Shown in pieces: positions 29,731 to 48,023 of a stretch of 64,000 nt of DNA. The notes beneath the pieces are model-generated. The model had not been told where the DNA came from. It saw only the letters and a program-made list of their open reading frames with translations, and did no database searches. Position 1 is the stretch's first letter; each line of letters begins with the position of its first letter. The position numbers and the translations under genes were made by a program. The stretch lies in assembly GCA_001792115.1 (NCBI GenBank), contig MGFX01000001.1, positions 122,694 through 186,693 on the forward strand. The letters are read 5' to 3'. Source of the stretch: Candidatus Woesebacteria bacterium RBG_16_42_24 (GTDB taxonomy: Bacteria; Patescibacteriota; Microgenomatia; UBA8517).

Positions 29731-31485
29731 TTACAGCTTCTCTATATTAAAAAGCGTGCTCTTGAGACCAATGTAGCCTGGGGCGCGAAGGTTAAAGGCG
29801 CGTTTTAACTCCTCGCCACTCACTGAAATACTTCCTTTATTGGTGCCGAAGGTAACCGATAGGGTGGAACCATTAGTTGAATAAATTACTGAAATTGAAG
29901 AAGCACTATTGTATCCTCCAATTCCCGCAAGTTCGCTTTTGGAGTAGGGGTTTCCGCCCCAACAAGCAGTATCTATGGGAGAAACCCTCGAAGCATCTCC
30001 CCCTCCTTGGTAGAGTACATGCCAAGCATTTAGAATGTCCGCCATCTCTTCCGAGGTTAGCCAAGGGTGGGAACGACCGCAGGTTGCACCTGACCTGGCT
30101 TTATACCAACCCTTATAAAACCAAGGCGAGGCCGAAACTTTCTCGTAAGCTGTACCCGGCCAATCGCCGGATGCGTCTTTTATTCCGCTCCAACCCCATT
30201 GGGAAATGGTAAATCCTCCGGAGGTTGAGGCATAGTAAGTCGTTGCAAAACTTCCCCCCCTCATCATCACCCAACCGCGAGTGGCTTGAACTGCTTCTCT
30301 CCACTTGCCGCTTTTTAACTGTGGCTTATACACCTGACAACTCTCGGTCGGACAAATTGTTCCCGACCCTCCATTTGTAACTGCCAAGGCATAAGAGCGT
30401 GCCGCGACTGCCTGGGCTTTCAAAGCCTCAAATCCGCCCGAGTTTCCCCAAGACTCTGGAACTTCGTAAATGCCTAAAAGGTAATTGTCTTCAAAGGGAA
30501 TGCTTCCATAACCCGAGACATTTATAGTTGCCGGTGAGGGATAATCTTTCCTAAGCTCTCCTCCTTGATAGTATGCAGAAAGAATCGTCTCCGCAGACTG
30601 CCCCGACTTACTCCTTCCATAGGCTCCGTACTGACTCATACCGGTTCTATGTGGAGCGCCAAATGAGAAAGCGGCGAATGCGGGTCGAAAGCCCGGGTCG
30701 CAGAAATTGGAAGAGCCGGGGGCACCGGAGCAGGGTTCTAAAGTTGCCGGCGTATCCCCAACAGAAGTTGAAAATCCTCCTGCCTTGAGTGCCAAGAGCT
30801 CATTTTGGCGTGAAGTTAGAGAGCTTAGATAGGATTCTGTTTTCGCGACTTCCCCTGCCAGAAAGTCCGCCTGTTTATCAACTTTTGCCTGGAGCGCGGA
30901 AAGGGCTGTTTTATTTTTTTCTAAAGATTCTTTGTCGGATTTCAGGTTTCCAAGATCCTGGGCATAAGCCTCCATTGTGCGTCTATCCTCGTCGGCCGCT
31001 TTTTGGCGAAAGTTAATCTCCCGAAATGCTTCCGATGCGTCAGTTGAGGAAAGAAAGGGCATAAGGGGATCATAAAGACGAATAAACTTATAATGATTTG
31101 CGGCTTTTTCCTCAAAAATTTCTTTTGTATACGCCAAGTCCTCTTCTCTTTGGGCGATATCCGACTCAACCCTGGTTAGTTGGGCGGAGACTCCTGTAAT
31201 TTGCTTGGAAATTGAGGCTAGCTGGGCTTTTAGCTTAGCCAGTTCCTGTTTATTTGTTTCTTGGGCCGGAGTTAGGGCGTCGAGCTGCTCCTGAATTTTT
31301 GCAAGGCAATAGTCAATGTCGCCAGGGCCGGGCGAGTCGCAGTTGGGCTCGGCGGAAATAGTGAATAGTGAATGGTAATTAGGGATTGGTCGGGGCAGGA
31401 TGGCCAATGCAAGAGAAATGCTTCCGAAAAATAAAATTATTAACTTTGTACTATGCACTATGCGCTTTGCTCTATACTTTCTCAC
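29731..31485 (-). CDS. secreted coiled-coil protein with C-terminal SpoIID/LytB domain (cell-wall amidase enhancer-like)
   Basis: 584 aa; signal peptide, ~200-aa coiled coil, then HRTGMSQYGA...AQAVAARSYALA SpoIID/LytB signature. Confidence 0.6.
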   Translation of the reverse strand: MRKYRAKRIVHSTKLIILFFGSISLALAILPRPIPNYHSLFTISAEPNCDSPGPGDIDYCLAKIQEQLDALTPAQETNKQELAKLKAQLASISKQITGVSAQLTRVESDIAQREEDLAYTKEIFEEKAANHYKFIRLYDPLMPFLSSTDASEAFREINFRQKAADEDRRTMEAYAQDLGNLKSDKESLEKNKTALSALQAKVDKQADFLAGEVAKTESYLSSLTSRQNELLALKAGGFSTSVGDTPATLEPCSGAPGSSNFCDPGFRPAFAAFSFGAPHRTGMSQYGAYGRSKSGQSAETILSAYYQGGELRKDYPSPATINVSGYGSIPFEDNYLLGIYEVPESWGNSGGFEALKAQAVAARSYALAVTNGGSGTICPTESCQVYKPQLKSGKWREAVQATRGWVMMRGGSFATTYYASTSGGFTISQWGWSGIKDASGDWPGTAYEKVSASPWFYKGWYKARSGATCGRSHPWLTSEEMADILNAWHVLYQGGGDASRVSPIDTACWGGNPYSKSELAGIGGYNSASSISVIYSTNGSTLSVTFGTNKGSISVSGEELKRAFNLRAPGYIGLKSTLFNIEKL

Positions 31486-31571: not shown

Positions 31572-32381
31572 ATGAAAAAATTATTTTTGATAAGCGCATT
31601 TCTTTTCCTCGTTTCTTTAGCTCTGCCAAGCAAAGTCTTTGCCGACTGCGCCTTGGCCGACTGGAACGAAAATACAAGGAATATGCAGGTTTGTGTCGGA
31701 GAATTCAGTTCCGTGGCCGAACTTAGAGATACCACTGTTGAGTTTCATTGCACGGGTAATTCAAACATACCATATGGCTCTTTCTGTCGAGACATTGTAA
31801 ACCCCACATTTTCCTTTGCTAGTACAACCGACCTCCCCGATAGCGAGATCAGGCAAGATCCAAACGGACTTTACTATGCCTGCATAACCGGGCAAGGACT
31901 CAATAGAGCCATCGGCTCATTAGATGTAATCTTTTGGAATGGCGGCTCTGAATACTGTCGAATAAATAATTTATATACCCGGCCACCCGACTGGAACCCT
32001 CTTACAGAAGGCGCTCCTTGGCAAAGGGGGACCAACAATCCTGCCCCAGTTCCAATTACGGTAGATATTGAGTTAATGTGTACGACGGGCGGGGATAGGG
32101 GAATTAATACCGCCATAGGCTGTATTCCGATTTATGATTCCACTGCCTTATTTGGTTTTATTCTTAAGTGGGCGATTGGAATCGGTGGGGGAATTGCATT
32201 CATCCTAATTCTTGTCGCCGGATTTCAAATAATAACCTCGCAAGGAGATCCGCAAAGACTCCAGGCCGGAAAAGAACTCTTAACGTCGGCCATTGTTGGG
32301 CTACTTCTTATAATTTTTTCGGTATTCATTCTGGAGGTAATAGGGGTGGACATATTGGGAATCCCGGGATTTAATCAATAA
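31572..32381 (+). CDS. secreted Cys-rich protein with C-terminal VirB2/TrbC-like pilin module
   Basis: 269 aa; signal peptide; C-terminal ~70 aa (AFILILVAGFQIITSQGDPQRLQAGKELLTSAIVGLLLIIFSVFILEVIG) matches the motif shared by the downstream small pilin-like genes. Confidence 0.5.
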   Translation: MKKLFLISAFLFLVSLALPSKVFADCALADWNENTRNMQVCVGEFSSVAELRDTTVEFHCTGNSNIPYGSFCRDIVNPTFSFASTTDLPDSEIRQDPNGLYYACITGQGLNRAIGSLDVIFWNGGSEYCRINNLYTRPPDWNPLTEGAPWQRGTNNPAPVPITVDIELMCTTGGDRGINTAIGCIPIYDSTALFGFILKWAIGIGGGIAFILILVAGFQIITSQGDPQRLQAGKELLTSAIVGLLLIIFSVFILEVIGVDILGIPGFNQ

Positions 32382-32382
32382 A

Positions 32383-32718
32383 ATGCAACTTGCGCAAATA
32401 GATTTCGGACAACTATATAGGGAGTTAAGGCAAGGAAATGCGGGTTTTGATTTTAATCAGAGCCTGACACTCGGACAAATTATTAGCTCTTTAATCCCGT
32501 ATATTTTTGTAATCGCGGGGCTACTTCTGCTTTTATATCTAGTTTTTGGCGGATTCGGACTTATGACTTCAAGAGGAGACCCAAAAGCAGTTGCCGCAGC
32601 CAAGGAAAAAATCACTTTTGCCGTTGCGGGGTTCGTCATCATTTTTGTATCATATTGGATAGTTCAGATTGTAGGGCAAATTTTGGGAATTCAGGATATC
32701 CTGGATATATTTGGCTAA
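32383..32718 (+). CDS. T4SS pilin-like protein (VirB2/TrbC-type two-TM hairpin), paralog 1
   Basis: 111 aa; TM1-GGFGLMTSRGDPKAVAAAKEKITFA-TM2-YWIVQI; motif hydrophobic-GG..ITSGGD(K/P)..AK..IT.A..G-hydrophobic-W.IIQ shared by 8 genes. Confidence 0.55.
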   Translation: MQLAQIDFGQLYRELRQGNAGFDFNQSLTLGQIISSLIPYIFVIAGLLLLLYLVFGGFGLMTSRGDPKAVAAAKEKITFAVAGFVIIFVSYWIVQIVGQILGIQDILDIFG

Positions 32719-32728
32719 AGCCTTAATA

Positions 32729-33228
32729 CAATTTCCAGTTTCCAGATTCCAATTTCCAGTTAATTTCTAATTATCAAAATTTCGAAATTAATAATTTTTC
32801 CTTTCTAAAGTAAGTATTGAAGTTGTCAAAATCTTTATAATTTCCCCACCCTCATTTATTAGCGTCTTACACTTTATAACAACTTCCTCATAAGAGGGAT
32901 TGGCCTCCAGGATTAATCGAAGCCAATAGATAGATTCTCTGGTCTCTTTCCTGCAGACCCTTAATCTATGAACAAAGTCTTTTCTTCCAAGTGCTTCGAG
33001 CGCTTCAATATAATTTGACCCGGGTGAAGCGGAAGATCGTATAAGCTGTTTTCCATATTCTCTGTTGTATTCGGATTTTGGAAGTTCGAATATTATTTTT
33101 TGACAATTTTGTGCAAAAACTACGAGTCTTTCATAAAAGGCTTCTGAATCGAATTTGGTTGCCATGGGGCGAATTCTATCATTTTATTTGGAAACTGGAA
33201 ATTGGAGATTGGAAATTATCAATTATAG
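32729..33228. mobile_element. split heptamer-iteron palindrome enclosing a four-helix-bundle gene
   Basis: Left arm CAATTTCCAGTTTCCAGATTCCAATTTCCAG..AATTATCAAAAT (32729-32800); right arm TTTGGAAACTGGAAATTGGAGATTGGAAATTATCAATTAT (33183-33228); the 4HB gene lies between the arms. Confidence 0.5.
32788..33165 (-). CDS. four-helix-bundle protein (TIGR02436 family)
   Basis: 125 aa; family-typical ...Y.RL..FAQNC..II.ELPKSEY..GKQLIRSSAS.GSNYIEA.... Confidence 0.7.
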   Translation of the reverse strand: MATKFDSEAFYERLVVFAQNCQKIIFELPKSEYNREYGKQLIRSSASPGSNYIEALEALGRKDFVHRLRVCRKETRESIYWLRLILEANPSYEEVVIKCKTLINEGGEIIKILTTSILTLERKNY

Positions 33229-33285
33229 TCTTGCATGGACACCATTTGCGGCGCTATGCTAAACTACACAAGCTAAAATAAAACG

Positions 33286-34032
33286 ATGGCTAATAAGCTT
33301 CACATTAAAGCACCCCAACACGTTGCAATTATCATGGACGGCAACCGTCGCTGGGCGGCCAAGCGTGGCTTAGGGGCGGTCGATGGTCATAGGGTTGCGG
33401 CAGAAAAAACCATTGAGCCAATTGTCGAGCGGGCAATTACCCTGGGCATTAAATATTTAACCTTTTGGGCTTTCTCATCTGAAAATAGAGATAGGGACAA
33501 GGTTGAGCTCTCCGGACTTTTTAAAATTTTTAGGGAAGCACTAAAAACCCAAGTCAGAAGACTTTCGAAAAAGGGTGTAAGGATAAGAATGATAGGAGAC
33601 GTGAGCTGGTTCCCACTCGACATCGTCAAAAGGGTAAGGGAGATGGTTACACTCACAAAAGATAATGACACAATAACGGTTTCCTTTGCCCTTAATTACG
33701 GCGGCCGCAACGAAATCCTAAGAGCCGTTAAAAAACTCATAAAAGAAGTTGAAGTTGGAAGAGTTTCGATAGAGCGCGTGGACGAAGCGGAATTTTCAAG
33801 ACACCTTGATACGATTGGTATTCCTGACCCCGATTTGATTATTCGAACCGGCGGGGAAATGAGACTTTCGGGATACCTACCTTGGCAGGCGGTTTATGCA
33901 GAACTTTACTTTACTGAAGTTCTTTTTCCTGATTTTTCTCCAAAAGAATTTGATAAGGCTTTAGAAGATTTTAGTAAGAGGGACCGGCGCTTCGGGAAGG
34001 GGAGTTTCAAAGACTATATAAAGACTATATGA
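33286..34032 (+). CDS. uppS: undecaprenyl-diphosphate synthase (cis-prenyltransferase)
   Basis: 248 aa; HVAIIMDGNRRWA, LTFWAFSSENRDR, IRTGGEMRLSGYLPWQ signatures. Confidence 0.9.
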   Translation: MANKLHIKAPQHVAIIMDGNRRWAAKRGLGAVDGHRVAAEKTIEPIVERAITLGIKYLTFWAFSSENRDRDKVELSGLFKIFREALKTQVRRLSKKGVRIRMIGDVSWFPLDIVKRVREMVTLTKDNDTITVSFALNYGGRNEILRAVKKLIKEVEVGRVSIERVDEAEFSRHLDTIGIPDPDLIIRTGGEMRLSGYLPWQAVYAELYFTEVLFPDFSPKEFDKALEDFSKRDRRFGKGSFKDYIKTI

Positions 34033-34123
34033 AGAAGACTTCGTCTTCACGAAATTCCAAATTCCCTGCCTCGCCGGCAGGCGGGCAATTACCCCGCCTA
34101 CGCCAAGGCTTCGGCGGGCAGGC

Positions 34124-34210
34124 AATCTCCAATTAAATTCCAAAATCCTAATTATTAATTTGATAATTCTAGATTATCTGGAAACTGGAATCTGGAAATT
34201 GGAAATTAGT
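34124..34210. repeat. heptamer-iteron palindromic element upstream of pilin gene
   Basis: TCTCCAATTAAATTCCAAAATCCTAATTATTAATTTGATAATTCTAGATTATCTGGAAACTGGAATCTGGAAATTGGAAATT. Confidence 0.65.
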
Positions 34211-34233
34211 ATATGTTTTGTTACACTTAAGTC

Positions 34234-34548
34234 GTGAGAGAGATTGCCCTGAATATCGGAACCTATTTTAATTCTCCCATCGGTAAAACCGTGGGTGCAG
34301 GGCAACTAGTTTCAATAATCCTTTCAAACGCATTACTTTTTGCCGGAGTTCTTATGGTCTTCTTCTTAGTTGTCGGGGGAATTGGGGTAATATCGGGTGC
34401 GGGAGAAGACAATCCCGAGAAAGCCGCTAAAGGAAAACAGGCCGTAACTTTTGCCCTCATAGGTTTTCTGGTAATTTTTGCATCTTATTGGATAATTCAG
34501 ATAATAGAGCAGATTACGGGAGTCAACATTTTTAACCCGGGATTTTAG
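34234..34548 (+). CDS. T4SS pilin-like protein, paralog 2
   Basis: 104 aa; LVVGGIGVISGAGEDNPEKAAKGKQAVTFALIGFLVIFASYWIIQIIEQI. Confidence 0.55.
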   Translation: MREIALNIGTYFNSPIGKTVGAGQLVSIILSNALLFAGVLMVFFLVVGGIGVISGAGEDNPEKAAKGKQAVTFALIGFLVIFASYWIIQIIEQITGVNIFNPGF

Positions 34549-34591
34549 GAAGTCTTTATTTAGTATCTGTTTTGGTATTTAATAATATTAG

Positions 34592-34939
34592 ATGCAAGAA
34601 GTAGCACAAGTTTTCGGAAACGTTAATGCGCCCCCTGGAGTTAGCCAATATGGAAACCTGACCGAGGGGGGGCCGACTTATTTCATAACCAATATTTTAA
34701 GGTTTCTAATTGTCATTGCGGGAGTATATGCGCTAATTAACATGGTTCTTGCAGGTTATGCTTTTTTGTCAGCGGGAGATGACCCGAAAAAGGTGGCTGG
34801 GGCTTGGGCCAAGATTTGGCAATCTATTTTGGGGGTTGTAATTTCGGCCGGGGCATTTGTTCTGGCTGCTCTTTTTGGAAGACTTTTGTTTGGGGATTAC
34901 TCGGCCTTCTTAAGGCTTAGAATTTTCGGTCCCAATTAA
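34592..34939 (+). CDS. T4SS pilin-like protein, paralog 3
   Basis: 115 aa; MVLAGYAFLSAGDDPKKVAGAWAKIWQSILGVVISAGAFVL. Confidence 0.5.
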   Translation: MQEVAQVFGNVNAPPGVSQYGNLTEGGPTYFITNILRFLIVIAGVYALINMVLAGYAFLSAGDDPKKVAGAWAKIWQSILGVVISAGAFVLAALFGRLLFGDYSAFLRLRIFGPN

Positions 34940-34940
34940 T

Positions 34941-35330
34941 ATGGAAAACTTTATCGCTCAAAGAGAAATACCAATAAACGGTACTATCGAAGGGTTTGGC
35001 CCACTGGGGTTGGAGGGTAGAAATCCCCAAGAGTCAACGAACATATTTAATTTCTTCCTCTCAAGCACGATTGGGCTACTGACTATTATTGCTGCTATTT
35101 GGTTTCTTTTTGTGCTTATCACGGGGGCAATTAGTATTATCTCTTCCGGAGGCGACAAGGCTAAAGTAGCAGAAGCCAGGGGGAGAATTACAACGGGGCT
35201 TATCGGGTTAATAGTAGTTATTGCCGGAATATTTATCTTAGAGCTTATCGGAACTTTAATCGGGTTTGATCTTATCTTAAATCCGGGGGAGTTTATTCAA
35301 AGAATCCCGCCCTGGATTGTTGGTCCATAA
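34941..35330 (+). CDS. T4SS pilin-like protein, paralog 4
   Basis: 129 aa; LITGAISIISSGGDKAKVAEARGRITTGLIGLIVVIAGIFILELIG. Confidence 0.55.
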   Translation: MENFIAQREIPINGTIEGFGPLGLEGRNPQESTNIFNFFLSSTIGLLTIIAAIWFLFVLITGAISIISSGGDKAKVAEARGRITTGLIGLIVVIAGIFILELIGTLIGFDLILNPGEFIQRIPPWIVGP

Positions 35331-35679
35331 AATGCTAGCCCAAGTTCCAGCTCCAAATAAGATAACTAACCCCGCCTTAGGGAATAATCTCCAAAACCTA
35401 ACGGGCGCTGAATTTTTTGAAAAATTTGTTCCCATGTTAATTAGTCTTGTACTTATCATCGGGGTTGTCATCTTTACTTTTGTTCTAGTCTTGGGGGCGA
35501 TAAGTTGGATTTCCTCCGGGGGAGACAAGGCTCAAGTCGAAAGCGCAAGGGGGAAAGTTACTACGGCTATTATCGGGCTAGTTCTTCTCTTTTCAGCCTG
35601 GGCAATTATTAATCTAATTGAGCTATTTTTCGGGATAAACATTTTAACACTTGACATTCTTAACTTAGCAATTCAATAA
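35317..35679 (+). CDS. T4SS pilin-like protein, paralog 5
   Basis: 120 aa; LVLGAISWISSGGDKAQVESARGKVTTAIIGLVLLFSAWAIINLIE. Confidence 0.55.
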   Translation: MLVHKMLAQVPAPNKITNPALGNNLQNLTGAEFFEKFVPMLISLVLIIGVVIFTFVLVLGAISWISSGGDKAQVESARGKVTTAIIGLVLLFSAWAIINLIELFFGINILTLDILNLAIQ

Positions 35680-35694
35680 TTAAGGAGTAGAGAT

Positions 35695-36021
35695 ATGTTA
35701 GCCCAAGTCAATCTATCACCTCAAGGCCAGTGGACCAATCTGGGTGGCCTTACAATCCCAGGAATCATAGCTGGTTTTATTACTGCTGTATTAATTATTG
35801 CCGCAGTTGTTTTCTTCTTCATTCTCGTAATTGGAGGGATAAGATGGATTACTTCTGGTGGAGATAAGGCCAATACGGAGGCTGCCAGGGGTCAAATTAC
35901 CGCCGCCCTGGTTGGGTTAGTAATTGTCTTTGCCGCCTGGGCAATAATTCAGCTACTTCAGACATTCTTTGGCATGAATATTCTCCAAAATCTTACTATA
36001 CCTACTGCAAACACTCCGTAA
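35695..36021 (+). CDS. T4SS pilin-like protein, paralog 6
   Basis: 108 aa; LVIGGIRWITSGGDKANTEAARGQITAALVGLVIVFAAWAIIQLLQ. Confidence 0.55.
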   Translation: MLAQVNLSPQGQWTNLGGLTIPGIIAGFITAVLIIAAVVFFFILVIGGIRWITSGGDKANTEAARGQITAALVGLVIVFAAWAIIQLLQTFFGMNILQNLTIPTANTP

Positions 36022-36033
36022 GACTTATCTAAG

Positions 36034-36061
36034 GCAGCGCCCGAAAGGGCGCTTTTTTGTT
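36034..36061 (+). terminator. rho-independent terminator
   Basis: GCAGCGCCCGAAAGGGCGCTTTTTTGTT: GC-rich hairpin followed by T-run, directly after pilin paralog 6. Confidence 0.7.
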
Positions 36062-36113
36062 GGCAAAGGGCAAAATTGCTTTTTTTGTATCTACGCCCTA
36101 AACTTTTAGTGAT

Positions 36114-36434
36114 ATGTTGCCGCCGCCATGGTCGGATCCAACCGGGAATACCCCCGCAACTTTTAGTGACATCGAGGTCGCCTTTGCCAGGATCGTATTG
36201 GTAATTTTGGGACTTGCCGCAATTGTTCTTTTCATCATGCTTCTTGTCGGAGGATTTAAATTTATTACGGCCGGGGGTGACCCCAAAGCCGTGGAGTCGG
36301 CTAAAAAAACTTTGACTTACGCAATTGCCGGAATGGTTTTGGTTGCCTCGGCCTATCTAATCCTTCGCTTCATTGGTGTATTTACCGGCATTGACGTGGT
36401 TAACTTTAGAGTATTTCAACCCCTTCAACCCTAA
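36114..36434 (+). CDS. T4SS pilin-like protein, paralog 7
   Basis: 106 aa; LLVGGFKFITAGGDPKAVESAKKTLTYAIAGMVLVASAYLILRFIG. Confidence 0.55.
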   Translation: MLPPPWSDPTGNTPATFSDIEVAFARIVLVILGLAAIVLFIMLLVGGFKFITAGGDPKAVESAKKTLTYAIAGMVLVASAYLILRFIGVFTGIDVVNFRVFQPLQP

Positions 36435-36440
36435 TGATAT

Positions 36441-38840
36441 ATGATTCAACTGCCCAAATTACCAAGATTTAGGAATTATGATTTACGATTTAAGATAGCA
36501 CCTATCCAGGGACTTACACTCATTACATTTTCCCTTCTACTAGCGTCTTCACTTTTTCTCTCGATAAAACTTGCCAGCGCCCAAGTCCCCCCACCAACTG
36601 TACCTTGCAATCAAACGAATGAAGACAGGGGTTATCCCGACGAATTCCATTCACTCCGTCCTTACCAGGCAAGTCCCTGTAGCGACGAAACAGAGCCCTC
36701 TGCTCTTTTTTGCGGGAATGACCTGACTTTGCAAGACAGCTTTACGGTAAGCAGAAGCCAAGCATCTCAGTGCGACCCCATAAGTCCGGATACGGAAGAG
36801 TGTATTTTTAAAATAACCCGAAATTTGGATATTGCGGTTGACGTTTCGGGTGCAGAGCTACCCATAATGGGAAGGACTGAGGATGACGTAATCAATTCCC
36901 AAAATCAAAACGAAACCAGAAACGATGCTGAAAAAGTCAACGAGTATGTAAGTTGGTATTTAAATGGTACAAATATTGCCGCCGAATATGGAGATTTAGA
37001 CGCAGGCAATGAAGACGATATCTCAAAACTCGTGAACTTCTCGGGTCCAATAAAAAAACTTCTTCCCGAACGAATAAAAAGAGATGAAATTAGAGAGACC
37101 ATAGAGGCAAGACGAGCAGACAGGCACGACCAGGTTGTTGGATGTATAAGAAGAGAAGGATTTCTCGGAATTTATGTGGGAATCGTCGAATGTTACTCGG
37201 GCGGTGGGGGAACGGAAATTCGCCTTTCCGACCTGGCTGATCATATGCCGCCACAGGAGGAAGATCCACGCTTTGCCAATTATCAAGAGTTCCTCTGGGC
37301 ATATTTTAGGTGGCGGGGCTACGAATGTCCGAATATCCCAATTGTCAATATTACCGTCTGCTTCGAGGCGCCCTGGCTGTTTAATTACTGGGCCGACCTT
37401 TATTACCTAACGCCCCTTTCTTCCACCGAAGACAGGCTGGGACAAATTCAAGTCGTCAATCCTTACGTGCAACCCGTGACTCCCGGAATGTTTATTTTTG
37501 TGAATAGTTTAGTTACAACTCCAGCAAAACTTTTTTTTGCCCACATGGAAGAATCGCAGGAGCTGGCCGATACTCTTCAAGATACTTTTGTTCCCAAGGG
37601 GAACCCCAAAAGCGGTCCGGTCTCAGGAGTAAGCCCGCCCGAATATTGCGACTTAACCGAAATTAGAACCAACCCGGGTGACGACCTTTTTGCAGGAGAG
37701 ATTGGGGTGGACCTAACTTATACTGCCGACTTTTCCTGCACCTTTGATATATTCGACCCGCCGGACCCGGTTGATAGATACCGATGCAGCGAACTCTATG
37801 GGGGTGTCTGTGTATCGGATGATTACGATTGCGACGAAATGGACGGACAACTCGATTGTCCTTCGGGGTGGAGATGCGGTAGACCCGAGGGTAGCTGTAA
37901 CGCCCAAAGACCTAACCCGTCTTGTCCGGCAACTGCGCAGGTGGTTCTGAATACAGTGACCAAAACTCCATTGGTAGACGATATTTGGTCTAGGCTTGTT
38001 GCCGGAGTTTCTGGGGTGTTCAAAAGAATTTTCCCCAAAGTAGCGCCGGGGGCACCCGTTGAGGGAATTCTTGACATTCCGGCGGCGACCGGAGTCACCT
38101 ATAGCGCTGAAATTAATAACGTCCCTGTCCCGGTTGCCGCCGGGAATCCGGGAAACCAGCGTGGCCCAGCCGCGGAGCTTTATTTTCCCCATATAGGAGG
38201 AATTGAGCAATACTTCTTACAATGCATCCAAACTGCCCTTAGGCCGCAGGGTTTTGGGGAAGTTTGCCCCTCGGGGGAACCTCCCGAAGTGGTTACAACC
38301 TGTCCGTCCGTACCCGACTCAGCAATCGACAGTAAATGGCTGGGTGTACCTAAACAAAATTACTTAAGGATGGCTAATCAGAGAATGGCTGCCTGTCCCG
38401 GACCTGAAAATAACCTTGCGGAAGAATGCTACAACTACGTAGTAAGTGAATCGCTAGATGAAGGAGTTAATCCTGCCTTTTCCCTGACAATGTGGTTTAA
38501 CGAAAGTGGTGCAAGCAATTACTGCACATCTCCTACTTTTGATTTTGGTATAAAAAATGGTGCACCTGCTGAAAACATCGTTGAACAACTCGACTTATTT
38601 TTGGTCCAACCATTCAGAATAACTGCTGCCTGCAGGAGCGACCCCGCCTGGATAGAACCAATGGAAGCGTTCTTGAGCGTTTTCCACGGAAACTACTACT
38701 GCGACACTTCGTATGATGACGGCGGCTATTATCAAAACACACTTAATAACAGCTGGATCCCGGTAACAGACGGGTGGGGCGGCTGCGGCGGAGGAACTTC
38801 TTTTGGCATCGACTGGCCGACGGATAGTAGCTGTCCATAA
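36441..38840 (+). CDS. large secreted Cys-rich surface protein (candidate pilus-associated adhesin)
   Basis: 799 aa; N-terminal TM/signal, >40 Cys in CxxC/CxxxxC clusters, no catalytic motif; position directly after pilin array. Confidence 0.4.
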   Translation: MIQLPKLPRFRNYDLRFKIAPIQGLTLITFSLLLASSLFLSIKLASAQVPPPTVPCNQTNEDRGYPDEFHSLRPYQASPCSDETEPSALFCGNDLTLQDSFTVSRSQASQCDPISPDTEECIFKITRNLDIAVDVSGAELPIMGRTEDDVINSQNQNETRNDAEKVNEYVSWYLNGTNIAAEYGDLDAGNEDDISKLVNFSGPIKKLLPERIKRDEIRETIEARRADRHDQVVGCIRREGFLGIYVGIVECYSGGGGTEIRLSDLADHMPPQEEDPRFANYQEFLWAYFRWRGYECPNIPIVNITVCFEAPWLFNYWADLYYLTPLSSTEDRLGQIQVVNPYVQPVTPGMFIFVNSLVTTPAKLFFAHMEESQELADTLQDTFVPKGNPKSGPVSGVSPPEYCDLTEIRTNPGDDLFAGEIGVDLTYTADFSCTFDIFDPPDPVDRYRCSELYGGVCVSDDYDCDEMDGQLDCPSGWRCGRPEGSCNAQRPNPSCPATAQVVLNTVTKTPLVDDIWSRLVAGVSGVFKRIFPKVAPGAPVEGILDIPAATGVTYSAEINNVPVPVAAGNPGNQRGPAAELYFPHIGGIEQYFLQCIQTALRPQGFGEVCPSGEPPEVVTTCPSVPDSAIDSKWLGVPKQNYLRMANQRMAACPGPENNLAEECYNYVVSESLDEGVNPAFSLTMWFNESGASNYCTSPTFDFGIKNGAPAENIVEQLDLFLVQPFRITAACRSDPAWIEPMEAFLSVFHGNYYCDTSYDDGGYYQNTLNNSWIPVTDGWGGCGGGTSFGIDWPTDSSCP

Positions 38841-40853: not shown

Positions 40854-43559
40854 TTAACCCCTAGTAGCCTTATCAAAAGCCGCACTCAAAGCCTTCTGTC
40901 CGGCAAGTTTTGCTAGTCTTCTATTAAAGTTAAGTCTACGCTTTATATCTTCCATAGTTATTTCTGTTAGAAATGTTCCTACCTCGGGAGAAAGCTCTTC
41001 CCGCGTTAATGTATTTATGAATTCCGCCAAAACTGTACCTATTGATTTACGCCCTATATCCAAGTCTTTATCGGCAAGGGCCATGTCTATTACACCGACT
41101 GCCCAAAGACCTCTTAGCTGCATAGGGCCCATTTTCTCGATTCTCAGATTTTCAGGTGCATCGGCAGTATTGAAATATACAACAGCTTCTTGCATAAAAG
41201 TCTTGTCCATTTCGGCAATCTTAGGCTTTCTATCTAAAAGAAGTCCACTTAGAAGCTTATATCTTGTCATAATAACGCTGCAATAAAACTGCCAATTGTC
41301 CTCTATTTGACTTATATCCAAATTGTCCACATTCATTTGGGTATCTACCCTAAAAGGAAGCCTTTCCCGCTGCCTCCCTTTAAATTTCTTTGTTTGTTTA
41401 TCCTCTTGGGTCCATCTTAACCACGACGTTCCAAACCCCCTAATTTCATCCTCGTGTACTTGCGGGCCCCTTATTCTACCCTTGCTTCTCCTGGCTTCCC
41501 TCCACTTTTTCAGACCAAATATTTCAGCTACCTGGTCGTTGCCTACAGTATCTCCTCTATTGAAAACAGAGTCTTCAAGGGTGGCCCGAGATAGTTTTTC
41601 TGCAAGCTGAAGCGACTTTTTAGCGTTTTCTCTTCTTTCTTCTGGAGTATTTCCATCAACACTCTCACTCCTCGCAATTTCCTCTATAAGAAGATTCCTA
41701 ACGGCTTCTTCTATTATTGGGTTTGTTTCTCTAAAAAAATTTACATTAGTGCGCGGCTTGAGTTTTCCTTCTTTGTTTCGTAAATCTTTATCATCTTTTG
41801 GAACCACCCTATCAACCCATTTCATATACTCCTGGTTATCGAAAACTGTATTGCCATCCTTATCTTCGCTTACATCAAAATGGTTTAGTTGCTGAAGTAA
41901 GTCCCACGCCCTGGGCACATCGAGCCCAGGCAATAACTCTCGTTTTAAAAACGTCTCTACTATCTCCCTATTTAACTGGTGCCCCCTTCTCTGAGCTTCT
42001 GCCGCCGCACTTCCAATTGCATATCCATGTCCCACTTTCTCTTCCTCCCTAAAAATCCACCCGTCAGCTTGTTTAATTAGCTCTGAACAGTCGTGTACGG
42101 CAAGCCTGGCTCTAGCTTCTCTCGCGATTCCTTTATCAATTTTTTCTATGGCCCCAAGTGATACCTCTAGCCCCCTTACAATATAGGTATTGCCAAAATC
42201 GAGAGTATCCCTGTTCGAATTCTCTATAGCATCTAATTTCTCTCGAACAAAAGCCCTAAGTTCTTCCACTTTTCCTTCGTATCTTTTAACGTCTATTTGA
42301 TACTCCCCCATAGTCATCCTAGATTGTGATTCGGCGGCACTCCTCATCGCCTCTGCGGCAGCAGTTAACACATCTGCCGATTCTTTAGTCCCTTGTTCCG
42401 ATTCGGGTCTAAATTTCTTCTTTGATAATGACGTCTTGACAAAATCGTGGGGTTCTACTCCCAGCTGGAAAAATGCTTCCCTCTGTACGCGCTTCTCTAG
42501 AAATTTCAAGCCTTCCTCTCCCTCTGATTCTCCGTGCATTTTTAACCACAAAATATCCTCCGGGGATCCCGCCACCATTGAAGGTCGCTTTTTAAATCGC
42601 TTTTCAAAACCGATTTTTCTAATTCTTAGCGCCTCCCCGGCGAATGCCGCACGCAGCATTCCTTCTTCTTCGGGTTTTAGGAAGCCCGTTGTACTTAAGG
42701 CTAAATTTTCTGCGTTAATCCCAAAGTTTTTAACATTGTCGTAAACCTCATCCCAAGTACTATCTCCAAGAATATTTAAATAAGTTTGTGTAATATCTTT
42801 AACAAATGCTTTGTGGTCCTGGTCTCGTTCGCTAAAGTTTTTCCACATCTCGTCCCTTTTTTCCATTGCTTTCTTTCTCGTCTCTTCTGATGTCTCATCG
42901 TCAATAATTATTTTTCGAAGGTCTTTAAAATTATCTGGTAATCTACCATCCTCTTTTGGGGGTTCCTCGGGCGGTTTTTCCGGAGGGCCTCCCTCTCCAC
43001 CAGGAGGAGTGCCTCTAGCTTCTTTTTCCCACCCCCTACTTTTTATCCATCGTGCAACCGCTCCCGGAAACCTTTCGACAAATTCATCTGCGGCATGAAC
43101 AGCTGCACCCCCCAGCGAAACCGGTAGGGCATTTAGCAAGCCTTCCCATGTTGACGCCTTTCCTTCCTTCTCAAGCTCCTCAATGTAGCGCATAAGGATT
43201 TTGCCCTGCCAGTGATGGCCCTCTGTCTCACTAATCTCATTTCTATTTACAAGCCCTTCTATAGTGTCGTAAGACCCTTGTAGAACTTCTTTGCTCACCA
43301 TGACATCTGGCCTTCTAGCGAGGCTATGAATTTCTACTTGAAGTGTCTCATTTTTAATATTATCGACCTCTTCTCGATTCTTAACTAACCATGGAGCCCA
43401 CTCTTCTCCCTCCGGTCCCTCAACCCGCCGATGGGGTAAAGATTGGTGTGGGTTGACAGGATTAGCCATAGCCCTTTTTCGAATCTCCCCAATTGAAGCA
43501 CCTTTTGATTCAATAATAATTTCGGGGCCTTTGCCCCCTCCGCCTTCTGCCATATCCAT
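40854..43559 (-). CDS. large acidic cytoplasmic hypothetical protein
   Basis: 901 aa single ORF, opposite strand within the T4SS-like locus; no recognisable motif. Confidence 0.4.
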   Translation of the reverse strand: MDMAEGGGGKGPEIIIESKGASIGEIRKRAMANPVNPHQSLPHRRVEGPEGEEWAPWLVKNREEVDNIKNETLQVEIHSLARRPDVMVSKEVLQGSYDTIEGLVNRNEISETEGHHWQGKILMRYIEELEKEGKASTWEGLLNALPVSLGGAAVHAADEFVERFPGAVARWIKSRGWEKEARGTPPGGEGGPPEKPPEEPPKEDGRLPDNFKDLRKIIIDDETSEETRKKAMEKRDEMWKNFSERDQDHKAFVKDITQTYLNILGDSTWDEVYDNVKNFGINAENLALSTTGFLKPEEEGMLRAAFAGEALRIRKIGFEKRFKKRPSMVAGSPEDILWLKMHGESEGEEGLKFLEKRVQREAFFQLGVEPHDFVKTSLSKKKFRPESEQGTKESADVLTAAAEAMRSAAESQSRMTMGEYQIDVKRYEGKVEELRAFVREKLDAIENSNRDTLDFGNTYIVRGLEVSLGAIEKIDKGIAREARARLAVHDCSELIKQADGWIFREEEKVGHGYAIGSAAAEAQRRGHQLNREIVETFLKRELLPGLDVPRAWDLLQQLNHFDVSEDKDGNTVFDNQEYMKWVDRVVPKDDKDLRNKEGKLKPRTNVNFFRETNPIIEEAVRNLLIEEIARSESVDGNTPEERRENAKKSLQLAEKLSRATLEDSVFNRGDTVGNDQVAEIFGLKKWREARRSKGRIRGPQVHEDEIRGFGTSWLRWTQEDKQTKKFKGRQRERLPFRVDTQMNVDNLDISQIEDNWQFYCSVIMTRYKLLSGLLLDRKPKIAEMDKTFMQEAVVYFNTADAPENLRIEKMGPMQLRGLWAVGVIDMALADKDLDIGRKSIGTVLAEFINTLTREELSPEVGTFLTEITMEDIKRRLNFNRRLAKLAGQKALSAAFDKATRG

Positions 43560-43714: not shown

Positions 43715-44098
43715 ATGGCGGAACCTGTCCAAAAAACTAGCTATAAAAACTTAATAGTTTATCAGAAGGCAAAAGCTCTAACGACAGATGTCCTTAGTTA
43801 TTTCTCAGAACATAAGCTACCTTACACAAAAGAATTCTTAATAAGACAATTATTCCGATCCGTTAGTTCAGTTGGGGCAAATATTGCTGAAGGCTACGGA
43901 AGGCATTATCAAGGAAGCCTAAGGCAATTCTTCGCCATCGCACGAGGTTCGAGTTTTGAGTCAGATTACTGGCTAGAGATTCTTCAGGAAATGGGAGAAT
44001 TTGACGGGAAAATAATATCAGATTTTATTAACAGAAACACAGAGCTTTCAAAAATGTTGACAAGTTTGATGAAAAAGACAGACGTTTCGCGTCAATAG
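43715..44098 (+). CDS. four-helix-bundle protein (TIGR02436 family)
   Basis: 127 aa; YKNLIVYQKAKALT..V......LPYTKEFLIRQLFRSVSSVGANIAEGYGR. Confidence 0.7.
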   Translation: MAEPVQKTSYKNLIVYQKAKALTTDVLSYFSEHKLPYTKEFLIRQLFRSVSSVGANIAEGYGRHYQGSLRQFFAIARGSSFESDYWLEILQEMGEFDGKIISDFINRNTELSKMLTSLMKKTDVSRQ

Positions 44099-44149: not shown

Positions 44150-45286
44150 ATGGAACAACAACACCCGATACCGCAACAAATCTCCTCTTACCAATTCCGA
44201 CTGGTGGGGGATATGACCCTCAAGCAATTCCTGCAAGTCGGCGGAGGCATGTTAATTGCCCTAATTATTTACTCAACTCCAATCATTGGACTTATTAAGT
44301 GGCCTCTTGTAATTATTTCTGCCTTAACAGGCGCGGCCCTTGCGTTCCTGCCTTTCCAAGAGAGGCCCCTAGAGAAATGGATTTTTGCTTTCCTTCGCTC
44401 AATCTATTCCCCAACCCTTTTTTATTGGAAACGTCTGCCCTCCGAAACCGCTTTTTTCCAAGAACAACCCACAACCCTACCCACCCCCTCGGTAGTTACC
44501 CCGCCGCCTCCCCCCGGGTATCCTGAACTGGCTATAGAAATCACTCCTCCTGTCGCCCCTGCTGCCCCTCTTCCAGCCGGAAGTCCTCAAGGTTTGACTG
44601 CCAAGCCACCCCTTATGGTGCCAACAATTGCCCCTCTGGGTTTTCCTTCATCGGGGCCGGTGTCCCAGGCCCCGAAAGCTCCAGTGGAGCTTGAACCGGG
44701 ATTAACAATCTTTCCTAACCTTGAGGAAGCAGAAAAAACTTTCTTGAGTAAAATCACGGGGCTATTTAGTCTTGCCCCAACCTTGCCTACCAATGAAGGT
44801 CCCGTTAGCGAGGAAGAGAAAAAAGGGCGCCTGAATGTCGTTCCATCAAAGCCAATCAAAATTGAGCCCATCCATGAGGAAAAAGAGGTCCCCGAAGAAC
44901 CCGCACTAGAACCTGTTTATGTTTCTGTTGCACCAACCTTAACTCCCACAAGGAAGTTAGCCGAGGAATTTGCGCAATTTAGTGAGGACGCCGCTCCTCC
45001 CTTTCCTCCCAGTCTTCCAAATGTGATTGTAGGTCAAGTTATGGACTCAAATAAAAAAATCGTAGAGGGAGCAATACTTGAAATTAAAGATTCTGCGGGA
45101 AGGCCCGTAAGAGCACTCAAAAGCAATAAACTAGGACATTTTATGATCGTCACTCCTCTAACTAACGGCCGCTATACAATAGAAATCGAAAAAAATGGGT
45201 TTATCTTTGATACTGTAAGTTTTGACGCGCTGGGAAACGTCATTCCGCCGATAGCGATCAAGGCCAAGGAGATAACCAATGCCTAA
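44150..45286 (+). CDS. PrgI-family (VirB3-like) T4SS membrane protein with Pro-rich linker and C-terminal CarboxypepD_reg-like beta-sandwich domain
   Basis: N-terminal ~100 aa: QFRLVGDMTLKQFLQVGGGMLIALIIY...LPFQERPLEKWIFAFLRSIYSPTLFYWKR matches the PrgI family pattern; followed by PPPPGYPELA... linker and GQVMDSNKKIVEGAILEIKDSAGRPV...GRYTIEIEKNGF domain; overlaps start of VirB4 gene. Confidence 0.55.
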   Translation: MEQQHPIPQQISSYQFRLVGDMTLKQFLQVGGGMLIALIIYSTPIIGLIKWPLVIISALTGAALAFLPFQERPLEKWIFAFLRSIYSPTLFYWKRLPSETAFFQEQPTTLPTPSVVTPPPPPGYPELAIEITPPVAPAAPLPAGSPQGLTAKPPLMVPTIAPLGFPSSGPVSQAPKAPVELEPGLTIFPNLEEAEKTFLSKITGLFSLAPTLPTNEGPVSEEEKKGRLNVVPSKPIKIEPIHEEKEVPEEPALEPVYVSVAPTLTPTRKLAEEFAQFSEDAAPPFPPSLPNVIVGQVMDSNKKIVEGAILEIKDSAGRPVRALKSNKLGHFMIVTPLTNGRYTIEIEKNGFIFDTVSFDALGNVIPPIAIKAKEITNA

Positions 45287-48023
45287 ACTATCTTTTCCTA
45301 CTCTCCCTATTGCGAACCCTTTCAAGGTACCTGATACTCCGATTATTGCCACCTCCCAGGACTTACTACCAATAGCAGACATTGACCAAGATGTTGTGGT
45401 TTACAAAGAAGGTGGCGCGGCATTGGTGGTTGAGACTACTTCTTTAAATTTTGGACTTCTTTCGGAGAAGGAGCAGTATGCCGTAATTGCGGCATATGCG
45501 GCACTCCTTAACTCCCTTTCTTTCCCAATTCAAATTCTGATCCGCTCCCAGAGAAAAGATATTAGCCACTATATGGAATATCTCGCTCAGGCAGCCAGGA
45601 AGGGTATGGATCCCAAACTTGCCAAGATAATGGAGGGGTATAAACTCTTCATCGTTGACGCCGTAAAAAAGAAAAATGTTCTGGGTAAAAAATTCTATAT
45701 AATAATCCCCTTTAGTCCTCTTGAGTTGGGTTTGGCTAAATCCATAAGCTCCCTTACCAGGTCCTCCGGCCCCCTTCCTTATCCCAAAGCATATGTAATT
45801 AAGAAGGCGAAAGACATCCTTTATCCCAGGCGCGACCACTTAATCAGACAGGGGGGGAGGCTGGGAATTAAACTAAGGCAACTTAGCACAAAGGAGCTTG
45901 TTGAGCTCTACTACAACATATTTAATCCCCCACCACCGGCTACTAAAAAGATGGAGGAATTTGCCCCGCGCGAGAGCGGTGGTTTGCCAGATTTTCTAAA
46001 AGCCGGCGCGGGTCTTCTTGGAGGCCATAAACCCCCTACCCAATCCCCACCCGAAGCACCAGTCCCGAGCGGACTTGGAGGATCACCGATCCCGAGTGGA
46101 AATGGAGGACCAACGGCCCCGAGCGGACTTGTCCTGAGTAAAATCGAAGGAGTCGAGGGACCAACGGCCCCGAGCAGAGTCGAGGGGCAGATTGGCCCAT
46201 GGGGTGAAAAGCCGAAGGTATTTTCTCCAACAATTTCTCTTGCCCAGAAAAATATGGGCCTTTTGGATGTCATTGCTCCTCAATCAATTGAGATTGATTT
46301 TGACTTTATTAAATTAAACGGCGTCTATATCCGCACTCTCTATACAGCCATTAGACGCAGGTACGCTTCCCCCGGGTGGATTGAGCAAATTATCAATTTT
46401 GATAGTTCTTTGGACATTTCATTTCATATCTATCCAGTCGAGGGTAAAAGCGTACTTGACGACCTCAGACGCAAAATTGCCGAAATGGAGGCGGAAATGG
46501 AAACGGACATTGAAAGAGGCAAAATTGTCAATCCGGTTACTCAGGCTCAGCTGGAGGATGCATTGGCTCTCCAGGAACAATTGGTTAAGGGAATTGAGCG
46601 GTTTTTTGACTTCTCCTTCTATATCAGTATTCCGGCGTCGGACTTAGAGGAGCTTAACCATCTAACTTCCCAAGTAAAATCGACCCTTCGTTCGCTACAG
46701 ATCGAGGGAATTCCGGGCGCCCTTGATTGTGCCGACGCTTTTATCTCAGCCGGGCCATTCGGGTTGGACAAGATGGCCGTAACCAGAAACATGGATACAA
46801 CCAGCCTGGCAACGACTTTCCCGCTAACGAGTGCGGAGTTATCTTCCGACAAAGGAGTACTTTACGGAATAAATTCACAAAACGAGTCTTTCATTATTTT
46901 TGATAGATTCTCCTTGGAAAACTCCAACATGACAATATTTGCCACATCAGGAGCCGGAAAAAGTTATTTTGTAAAGCTCGAGGCCTTAAGAACCTTAATG
47001 CTAGGAGCTGAGATTATCGTCATTGACCCGGAAAGTGAGTATAAGACTTTGGCCGAGGCCGTCGGAGGAGAATTTATTTCCTTCTCCTTCTCCTCCCCTT
47101 CAAAAATTAACCCATTTGATTTGTCAGCTGTATATGAAGAGGGTGAGAACTCGTTGGGACTTAAGATTCTGTCCCTCCACTCTCTTTTTAAGGTCATTAT
47201 GGGGGCACTCACCCCAACCCAGGAGGCGCTTTTGGATCGGGCCCTAATCATGGCCTATCGCGGAAAAGGAATTACCCAAGACCCAGCCACCCAAAAGAAA
47301 GAGCCCCCCCTAATGGAGGACCTTTATAAATCACTCGTGGGGATGGAAACGCCGGATGCGATGGACTTGGCCGCCAGAATCGAAAAGTTTGTAAAGGGAA
47401 GCTTTGTGGGAATATTTGACCAGCAGACAAATATCGATATTAAAAACTCCTTTACTGTGTTCTCCGTCAAGGACCTTGAGGAAAGCCTTCGGCCTATTGC
47501 TATGTTTATTATTCTTGATTTTATTTGGACCAGGGTTAAAAGGGACCTTAAAAAGAGGGTTTTAATAGTGGATGAGGCCTGGCACATGATGCGCTACCCC
47601 GACTCTGCCCAATTTTTGTGGTCTGTGGTTAAAAGGGCTAGAAAATACTTTCTAGGTTTGACCACCATTACGCAGGACGTGGAGGATTTTTTGGCCCAGG
47701 ATATCGGAAAAGCCATTGTTACAAACTCCGCCCTCCGCGTACTTCTCAAACAGTCCCCGGCCGCAATTGACAATATCGGCCAAGTATTTTACTTGTCTGA
47801 GGGAGAAAAACAGTTGCTTCTTGCCGCAAATATCGGAGAGGGGATCTTTTTCGCCGGTGCTCACCACGCTCCCATTAGGGTTGTAGCCTCGCCCGAAGAG
47901 CACGGCCTAATAACCACCAAGCCGCAAGAGCTTTTGCAAAAAGAGGCGGCGTCTGCCCAAGTCGCCCCTTCTGAAGCCGCATCTATCGCCCAAGCAACTG
48001 TCCAGGGGCTAGGAAACCTTTAA
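45279..48023 (+). CDS. VirB4/TrbE/PrgJ-family type IV secretion ATPase
   Basis: 914 aa; Walker A TIFATSGAGKSYFVK, Walker B VLIVDEAWHMM, CagE/TrbE/VirB4 C-terminal region; Pro/Gly-rich insertion (aa ~230-300). Confidence 0.8.
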   Translation: MPKLSFPTLPIANPFKVPDTPIIATSQDLLPIADIDQDVVVYKEGGAALVVETTSLNFGLLSEKEQYAVIAAYAALLNSLSFPIQILIRSQRKDISHYMEYLAQAARKGMDPKLAKIMEGYKLFIVDAVKKKNVLGKKFYIIIPFSPLELGLAKSISSLTRSSGPLPYPKAYVIKKAKDILYPRRDHLIRQGGRLGIKLRQLSTKELVELYYNIFNPPPPATKKMEEFAPRESGGLPDFLKAGAGLLGGHKPPTQSPPEAPVPSGLGGSPIPSGNGGPTAPSGLVLSKIEGVEGPTAPSRVEGQIGPWGEKPKVFSPTISLAQKNMGLLDVIAPQSIEIDFDFIKLNGVYIRTLYTAIRRRYASPGWIEQIINFDSSLDISFHIYPVEGKSVLDDLRRKIAEMEAEMETDIERGKIVNPVTQAQLEDALALQEQLVKGIERFFDFSFYISIPASDLEELNHLTSQVKSTLRSLQIEGIPGALDCADAFISAGPFGLDKMAVTRNMDTTSLATTFPLTSAELSSDKGVLYGINSQNESFIIFDRFSLENSNMTIFATSGAGKSYFVKLEALRTLMLGAEIIVIDPESEYKTLAEAVGGEFISFSFSSPSKINPFDLSAVYEEGENSLGLKILSLHSLFKVIMGALTPTQEALLDRALIMAYRGKGITQDPATQKKEPPLMEDLYKSLVGMETPDAMDLAARIEKFVKGSFVGIFDQQTNIDIKNSFTVFSVKDLEESLRPIAMFIILDFIWTRVKRDLKKRVLIVDEAWHMMRYPDSAQFLWSVVKRARKYFLGLTTITQDVEDFLAQDIGKAIVTNSALRVLLKQSPAAIDNIGQVFYLSEGEKQLLLAANIGEGIFFAGAHHAPIRVVASPEEHGLITTKPQELLQKEAASAQVAPSEAASIAQATVQGLGNL

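Follow-up and report, generated by a model that had tools for sequence, protein, structure and literature searches.

A Woesebacteria protein encoded beside type IV secretion pilins carries an exchangeable C-terminal domain with a predicted lysozyme-like fold

What does a large, cysteine-rich protein do when its gene sits between the pilin genes and a VirB6-like gene of a type IV secretion system (T4SS)? This question is raised by a gene for a 799-aa protein in a 64,000-nt stretch of the genome of the uncultured, ultra-small Candidatus Woesebacteria bacterium RBG_16_42_24 (contig MGFX01000001.1, positions 122,694 to 186,693), referred to here as the window. Patescibacteria, or the Candidate Phyla Radiation (CPR), account for much of bacterial diversity. 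For epibiotic growth, the one cultured Patescibacteria model depends on its T4SS, which has an array of VirB2-like pilins; what the system does there is unknown (PMC10633639, PMC11665869). In a 2025 survey of these systems, no VirB1 accompanied VirB4 in Microgenomatia, an adhesin was not identified and VirB6 homologues were few (PMC12102498). The 799-aa protein is identical to hypothetical protein A2V97_03470 of the same bacterium, and the literature that we examined held no description of its family. We found that the protein joins a conserved, cysteine-rich body to a C-terminal domain that is exchanged among close relatives. With slightly less than even confidence, we propose that it is the wall-cutting subunit of the Woesebacteria T4SS or VirB2-pilus machine, with a role like that of VirB1 and PrgK but a scaffold that is new.

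We first describe the protein itself (Table 1). An AlphaFold2 model of the full length, built on 92 sequences (mean predicted local distance difference test score, pLDDT, 88.2; predicted template-modelling score, pTM, 0.73), shows an N-terminal helix (residues 20–42), a beta-rich body (about 48–611), a low-confidence Pro/Gly linker and an all-helical C-terminal domain (about 625–780). The only hydrophobic segment spans residues 22–40, and is followed after A47 by an (A/V)-x-A|Q site that the family conserves: Ala at position −1 in 89 of 92 members, V, A, T, I or S at −3 in 87, and Gln at +1 in 77. Judged by its sequence, this is probably a signal-peptidase I site. The protein contains 28 cysteines (3.5%), compared with 0–1.4% in 20 other large ORFs (open reading frames) of the window. 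Most of the cysteine columns are more than 90% conserved across the family, and the variable ones are gained and lost in pairs (296/307 and 595/609, each pair with Jaccard 1.0; 56/80 and 731/754, each with Jaccard 0.96), the behaviour expected of disulfide partners and one that suggests that the cysteines form disulfides. These results bear out the preliminary description of this DNA, which had noted a single N-terminal transmembrane segment or signal and a very cysteine-rich sequence; both of the cysteine clusters that it quoted are present. The body, about 560 aa long, has no relative in Pfam, NCBIfam, PHROGs or PDB. Its last conserved element is a junction motif in which L600, R601, P602, G604 and G606 are invariant or nearly so.

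The same description had seen no enzymatic motifs, and here our analysis disagrees, since the C-terminal ~175 residues are predicted to adopt a lysozyme-like glycosidase fold with an invariant glutamate. We refer to this domain as the head, and to the version found in the window as the query type. W685, E688, S692, D701 and Q716 are invariant in all 71 query-type domains. E688 stands at the C-terminal end of helix 678–689 and is followed by a serine (an 'ES' motif). In lysozyme-fold enzymes the catalytic glutamate sits at such a helix end. The spacing of 13 residues between E688 and D701 is also that of E73 and D86 in goose lysozyme. A model of the domain alone (residues 612–799) was obtained with pLDDT 92.4 and pTM 0.90. 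When it was compared with the PDB by Foldseek, GH73 enzymes, g-type lysozymes and MltE ranked first, with matches that were not significant (best E 0.6, TM score at most 0.53). The top families agreed between the full-length and domain-only models, which is a consistency of ranking only, and the further lysozyme-like families listed were Slt70, MltC/D/E, phiKZ gp144, peptidoglycan effectors of the type VI secretion system (T6SS), the type III secretion system (T3SS) enzyme EtgA and phage tail-tip lysins. Overall, we consider it very probable that this head is lysozyme-like and acts as a glycan hydrolase or a lytic transglycosylase, with E688 and D701 as its candidate catalytic residues.

Sequence profiles did not recognise the domain. 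Neither the full-length protein nor any of its three parts had a match in Pfam, NCBIfam or PHROGs. The whole protein and its C-terminal 199 aa had no match to SLT_3 (PF18896) or SLT (PF01464) at E up to 10, and at the same limit neither the window protein nor any of 18 diverse members, each taken singly, matched Glucosaminidase (PF01832, GH73), to which the likeness is purely structural. The 18 C-terminal domains searched singly against Pfam at E up to 10 gave scattered noise only, and PDB sequence searches with the full-family profile and the C-terminal profile gave nothing meaningful. Query-type domains do occur outside the family, fused to Peptidase_M23 (P0137) or behind other N-terminal modules (P0131, P0124).

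The heads are exchanged within the family. Family members share the body up to LRPxGFGE, and beyond this point they carry one of several unrelated C-terminal types. The query-type signature is GVNPAF.LTIWL.ESGASNY...QDFGI. In orthologues occupying the same slot, heads with the signature CN.ESGG...YS.GLFQINL match SLT_3, the 'lysozyme like domain' of Pfam, at 27.8–42.6 bits against a cut-off of 27, and a classical SLT-type head (LLRAIFEIEG...AAGLMQIT) scores 23.1 bits for PF01464, above its cut-off of 21.3. The orthologues that pass one or the other model are P0044, P0057, P0059, P0090, P0118, P0146 and the type represented by P0033; several further types exist, some with weak SLT matches. Pairwise identity runs at 90–100% up to LRPKG(F/Y)GEQI(L/I)SG and then falls to 0–35% per 40-column window of the alignment. 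Bodies that are 93% (P0033, SLT, and P0019, query type), 89% (P0015 and P0014), 88% (P0032 and P0019) or 86% (P0086, SLT_3, and P0068, query type) identical bear unrelated heads. A parsimony count on a neighbor-joining tree of the bodies gave at least 18 switches of head type among 92 members. A conserved N-terminal region, unrelated C-termini and a breakpoint after LRPKGFGEQILSG are features shared with polymorphic toxin systems.

Some heads travel with a neighbor. In all 14 loci with an SLT_3 head (one more locus is masked by N's), a homologous ORF of about 140–173 aa lies directly downstream. It encodes an N-terminal transmembrane helix and a two-cysteine C-terminal domain with the conserved end ...ACKL.V.ITTP...NP..AG..Y.LSFC. 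Neither the window nor the loci with other heads have this ORF, with the exception of L066, where the SLT_3 motif was not recognised. Its product has no Pfam or PDB match and belongs to no known inhibitor or immunity family; we regard it as a candidate for an inhibitor or a protector of the producer. In L020 and L065, another head type (GVPC.VLAG.H..EGSNN) comes with a membrane-anchored, homologous partner ORF of 190–202 aa that is particular to it. By comparison, 15 of 18 loci with query-type heads lack a partner ORF (gaps of 21–336 nt), as does the window (102 nt). A cognate downstream immunity gene was therefore not seen in the window, and partner and head co-vary in the SLT_3 type (14/14) and in the L020/L065 type.

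None of the loci examined contained an orphan cassette, that is, a second junction or head region. An apparent second 'tail' on the minus strand was considered as an orphan cassette and rejected, since it proved to be the odd C-terminus of P0015, which matches a SpoIID-like protein. The last ~135 aa of P0015 are 68% identical to the C-terminus of that protein (window 29734–30141, minus strand). The P0015 tail is probably an assembly chimera, or otherwise a real fusion or recombination. A group of long members (P0118, P0218, P0146, P0252 and P0183; 1145–1460 aa) includes some with large N-terminal extensions that bear an NAGPA phosphodiester-glycosidase domain. In these long members NAGPA and SLT_3 score above threshold and GDSL/SGNH or BNR below it. 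With NAGPA at the N-terminus and heads at the C-terminus, both ends of the scaffold can bear enzymes.

The family is large and keeps close company with the T4SS. The whole protein is matched by 533 clusters at 90% identity and the body alone by 601 clusters at 50% identity, of which 371 have E up to 1e-30. Relatives are encoded in 112 species-level genomes, and all of those that are informatively named are Woesebacteria, Microgenomates or Patescibacteria. Linkage was counted in 80 species-level loci, with the loci having enough flank as denominators. Pilin genes lie within 6 kb upstream of the family member in 62 of 64 loci, a VirB6-like gene lies downstream in 65 of 69, and VirB4 is within the locus in 50 of 62. 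VirB4 is missed where flanks are cut or where an insertion of about 5 kb places it too far away. The loci L045 and L062 are rearranged, and there the T4SS cluster still encloses the family member, which stands behind PrgI, VirB4 and the post-VirB4 gene. In L068 two minus-strand ORFs sized like dnaN and dnaA come next to it downstream, at what would be the edge of the cluster. These exceptions remain linked to the T4SS. No evaluable locus among the 80 was without T4SS genes, and the homologs in genomes lacking T4SS or pilin genes that would have contradicted the preliminary description were not encountered.

Two side observations concern these loci. The ~5-kb insertion lies between the family member and the VirB6-like gene (L013:12430–17375, L050:12542–16890, and also L044, L048, L067 and L079) and contains genes of competence or DNA processing (DprA, UPF0102 and a ComM-like Mg-chelatase ATPase), a helix-turn-helix or phosphoribosyltransferase gene, and an IVP or PemK gene. 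Many metagenome-assembled genomes with a Woesebacteria-type cluster are titled 'uncultured Gammaproteobacteria bacterium' (third-party annotation, TPA, assemblies), which looks like a placeholder or wrong label.

How might the protein work? In the window its gene begins 6 nt past the stop codon that closes the last PF18895 T4SS_pilin ORF (36114–36434), with no obvious Shine-Dalgarno sequence apparent upstream, and ends 102 nt before the VirB6-like gene, a gap that contains no ORF. These measured gaps agree with the position given to it earlier, directly after the pilin array and before the VirB6-like gene. The layout is that of an operon, in which the last pilin, the 799-aa gene and the VirB6-like gene would share a transcript. 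The product would be exported by Sec, with its signal peptide probably cleaved after A47. Outside the membrane, the ~560-aa body would fold into a beta-rich structure stabilised by disulfides and would dock to a conserved part of the apparatus, as suggested by the contrast between a conserved body and an exchangeable head. The lysozyme-like head would then cleave the glycan strands of peptidoglycan through E688, with D701, where the pilus or channel crosses the wall. For the window variant the default target would be the cell's own wall, because a partner gene of the immunity type is missing and no other VirB1 is recognisable in the cluster. The protein shares with the T4SS peptidoglycan hydrolases as a class its place in a T4SS cluster, an export signal and a lysozyme-like or SLT fold, the last as predicted. 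If so, the family would fill the VirB1 gap for Woesebacteria, and would do so by means of a protein that is invisible to sequence profiles. T4SS-associated peptidoglycan hydrolases and polymorphic effector architectures are already known. What is new is the scaffold, a lysozyme-like domain family (so classed on its predicted fold) for which Pfam and PDB gave no match by sequence, and the fact that the two are combined within a Patescibacteria T4SS pilin operon.

The closest functional parallels are the hydrolases of Gram-positive T4SSs (PrgK of pCF10, TraG of pIP501, CwlT of ICEBs1, TcpG, and CD630_03720, the Orf17 of a Tn916-like element), which are likewise encoded in T4SS operons, of the MPF-FATA type, and are likewise large, multidomain proteins with an N-terminal export or anchor sequence. 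The window protein has no detectable sequence similarity to them, and no CHAP, NlpC/P60 or LytM peptidase domain in its chain. In contrast to that class, its predicted enzyme is C-terminal, behind a cysteine-rich, beta-rich body of about 560 aa, its head is exchanged among close relatives, and in place of a transmembrane anchor it probably carries a signal peptide that is cleaved. FlgJ, the flagellar rod cap with a GH73 glucosaminidase, joins a machine-docking domain to a wall-cutting domain, the arrangement that we propose here, and GH73 enzymes (Ecd09610, LytB, Auto, AtlA) share with the window protein an 'ESG' motif after a helix. However, the window protein does not match PF01832, the TM scores are only 0.45–0.53, and the docking part is unrelated. 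With GH23 (Slt70, MltC/D/E/F, VirB1, EtgA, the g-type lysozymes, and Pfam SLT and SLT_3) the window protein shares a glutamate (here the candidate catalytic one) followed by serine, and its same-slot orthologues are true SLT_3 or SLT members, whereas the window domain fails both models and has DFG in place of the GLMQ/GLFQ motif.

Several results weigh against the wall-cutting proposal or its own-wall target. The lysozyme-like fold comes from a predicted structure, for which Foldseek found no significant match in the PDB with either the full or the domain model, and the window's C-terminal domain was unmatched in the Pfam, NCBIfam, PHROGs and PDB sequence searches. Alignment of the query-type profile with five other head groups by hhalign was not significant (best E 0.014, for 18 columns at the Glu motif), so that homology between head types was not shown by sequence. 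Docking by the body is purely something that we infer. Frequent and recent exchange of heads on near-identical bodies, together with partner ORFs that travel with them, would be unexpected if the protein remodelled only its own cell's wall. In addition, the conserved SpoIID-domain protein and the HExxH protein encoded after VirB4, which are described below, could do such self-wall work.

The strongest alternative is that the protein is a polymorphic lysin directed at a host or competitor. Here the body would be mounted on the T4SS or pilus, and the head would cut the wall of the attached bacterium, opening the way for the pilus or channel or for nutrients; swaps of the head would match the host's wall chemistry or evade its lysozyme inhibitors, and some heads would need a co-inherited, membrane-anchored protector. 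The count of at least 18 head switches in 92 members, the unrelated heads on bodies 86–93% identical and the sharp breakpoint after LRPKGFGEQILSG all speak for it, as do the transmembrane-helix partner ORF in 14 of 14 SLT_3 loci and the separate partner of a second head type. The long members add envelope-glycan enzymes (NAGPA above threshold, GDSL and BNR weak), the SpoIID-like and post-VirB4 peptidase-like proteins could serve the producer's wall, and the T4SS of a cultured relative is essential for epibiotic growth (PMC10633639, PMC11665869). Cassette exchange, partner ORFs and the other conserved wall enzymes fit a foreign-wall target better than an own-wall one. On the other side, the window's head type, which is the commonest, lacks a partner ORF (15 of 18 loci, and the window), orphan cassettes were not found in the loci examined, and the partner ORF, matching no known inhibitor or immunity family, has a candidate role only. 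Moreover, a host is known for no Woesebacterium, and export would be by Sec and not through the T4SS. We consider this explanation possible, and less probable than the own-wall proposal.

Known polymorphic toxin and immunity systems (CdiA-CT, Rhs and LXG; T6SS Tge/Tse3 with Tgi/Tsi3; Xanthomonas X-T4SS effectors with X-Tfi) resemble the family in having a conserved N-terminal part with a variable C-terminal enzyme, a junction motif, a sharp breakpoint, a co-varying downstream membrane-anchored ORF (here for some cassettes) and peptidoglycan-hydrolase payloads (here predicted). They differ in that the family cassettes examined all fall into one functional class, lysozyme-like, the window cassette has no partner, orphan cassettes were not found in the loci examined, and export is apparently by Sec. 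A more specific version of the foreign-wall explanation, that of a Sec-exported scaffold, stabilised by disulfides, on the T4SS pilus machine whose recombining lysozyme-like 'warhead', in some cases with a co-swapped membrane-anchored protector, breaches the wall of a host or prey, appears rather unlikely to us. If it were true, a polymorphic effector system of a new kind would have come to light, and with it a first concrete hint of the mechanism behind the role of the Patescibacteria T4SS. The purpose of the CPR T4SS can now be framed experimentally, as the questions of which wall each head cuts and whether the partner protein inhibits the head.

A third possibility is that the protein is an adhesin or pilus-tip protein, with a body that binds the partner's surface and a lysozyme-like domain that serves as a non-catalytic glycan-binding module. 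The preliminary description had proposed the adhesin role, with a pilus-tip adhesin or a host-binding surface protein, stabilised by disulfides, as the candidate. That the protein carries an export signal, is rich in cysteines that probably form disulfides and is tied to the pilin and T4SS cluster agrees with our data; that it is a plain adhesin does not, given the lysozyme-like tail predicted here. The gene follows the pilins directly, as virB5 follows virB2 in Gram-negative systems (PMC12857230 and established knowledge), its product seems to be exported and disulfide-rich, and an adhesin has yet to be found for Patescibacteria T4SSs (PMC12102498). VirB5, the Gram-negative pilus-tip protein, shares the adjacency to pilin genes and the export, yet it is helical and about 220 aa long, unlike the window protein, in which neither a VirB5-like helical fold nor a family match was found. 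The invariance of the Glu/Asp pair and 'ES' motif in 71 of 71 domains argues for catalysis, the orthologous heads are canonical SLT and SLT_3 enzymes, the body is conserved where host-binding surfaces are usually variable, and the beta-sandwich matches are generic. We therefore judge an adhesin improbable; it and an unrelated autolysin are both less likely than the own-wall and host-wall explanations.

Least probable is a general growth or division autolysin kept beside the T4SS by near-oriC synteny in one lineage, for although all loci come from one order-level group (Woesebacteria/Microgenomates), in which shared ancestry alone could keep gene order, and uppS, the SpoIID-domain gene, dnaN and dnaA are nearby, the gene is co-directional between the pilins and the VirB6-like gene with gaps of 6 and 102 nt, stays in the T4SS cluster or at its edge in the rearranged L045, L062 and L068, and has a body family found only in genomes of the T4SS-bearing lineage.

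Table 1. Positions of the features discussed, numbered from the first nucleotide of the window unless a locus is named
Feature	Position	Strand	Remarks
Whole ORF	36441..38840	+	ATG start, 799 aa, TAA stop
N-terminal region, residues 1–47	36441..36581	+	Basic N-region, hydrophobic helix 22–40, then ASA|Q; probable cleavable Sec signal peptide
Body (scaffold), residues 48–611	36582..38273	+	Conserved, beta-rich, Cys-rich, family-specific
Optional six-Cys insert, residues 449–486	37785..37898	+	CSELYGGVCVSDDYDCDEMDGQLDCPSGWRCGRPEGSC; present as a block in ~60% of family members
Junction motif LRPQGFGE, residues 600–607	38238..38261	+	Last conserved element of the body; recombination breakpoint
Pro/Gly/Cys linker, residues 608–624	38262..38312	+	Lower model confidence, pLDDT ~72 in blocks 601–620
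Lysozyme-like domain (query-type cassette; predicted), residues 625–799	38313..38837	+	All-helical; W685, E688, S692, D701, Q716 invariant
E688 codon	38502..38504	+	Motif WFNESGASNY, C-terminal end of helix 678–689; candidate catalytic Glu
D701 codon	38541–38543	+	Candidate second acid
VirB2-like pilin array, 8 ORFs	31572..36434	+	Four scanned, all pass PF18895; interrupted by a 23S_rRNA_IVP gene (minus strand) and uppS
VirB6-like gene, 578 aa	38943..40679	+	Signal sequence, ~8 transmembrane helices; label by position and topology only
PrgI/VirB3-like gene	44150..45286	+	Downstream of the 799-aa gene
VirB4 ATPase, CD1110 family	45279..48023	+	379 bits
Partner ORF of SLT_3-head loci	e.g. L002:12091–12573		L002, L003, L011, L016, L032, L034, L036, L037, L043, L053, L056, L075, L076, L077

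The rest of the cluster was examined in the window and in related loci. The VirB6-like protein had no match in Pfam and NCBIfam scans. Beyond VirB4 lie dnaN and dnaA (50433–53130), a layout that agrees with the placement near oriC published for Patescibacteria T4SS clusters (PMC12102498). The SpoIID-domain protein (584 aa; 29731–31485, minus strand) has a long coiled-coil-like N-terminal half, and its gene is divergent from the pilin array. Its position is kept in nearly all related loci, together with an upstream 655-aa protein, a DUF5657 protein and a bPH_2 protein. The ORF after VirB4 (48028–49836, plus strand) encodes 602 aa with three transmembrane segments and a C-terminal HExxH (ILTHESGH). 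This motif is kept in four of six complete counterparts, and in L002 the slot is taken by a Peptidase_M23 protein; the 602-aa protein is possibly another wall hydrolase of this cluster, a peptidase, and a variable one.

The first 'pilin' of the array (31572–32381, plus strand; 269 aa) has a signal peptide, a cysteine-rich extracellular domain of about 170 aa (3.0% Cys) and a C-terminal PF18895 module. Apart from the 799-aa gene it is the only Cys-rich ORF of the window, and it could be a pilin with a head domain. The 799-aa protein showed no similarity to this pilin or to the post-VirB4 602-aa protein; when it was compared with other proteins of the locus, a local NPxxxLxxxxxESG resemblance was discarded because its E value was 12. 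Between the seventh and last pilin ORFs, a strong terminator-like hairpin (AGCGCCCGAAAGGGCGCT, then a T run; 36036–36053, plus strand) may cause the last pilin, the 799-aa gene and the VirB6-like gene to be expressed at a lower level than the pilins upstream of it.

The array is split by a 23S_rRNA_IVP four-helix-bundle gene (32788–33165, minus strand) and by uppS, for undecaprenyl-diphosphate synthase (33286–34032, plus strand). A second IVP gene (43715–44098, plus strand) stands ahead of PrgI, and elsewhere IVP genes lie between the family member and the VirB6-like gene (L018, L046) and inside the insertion of L013. Lastly, a charged, non-membrane ORF of 901 aa (40854–43559, minus strand) without family match lies between the VirB6-like gene and PrgI. 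Searches by tblastn recognise this ORF in few related loci only, yet an ORF of similar size fills the slot elsewhere (746–774 aa in L001 and L002), and the 901-aa ORF appears to evolve fast.

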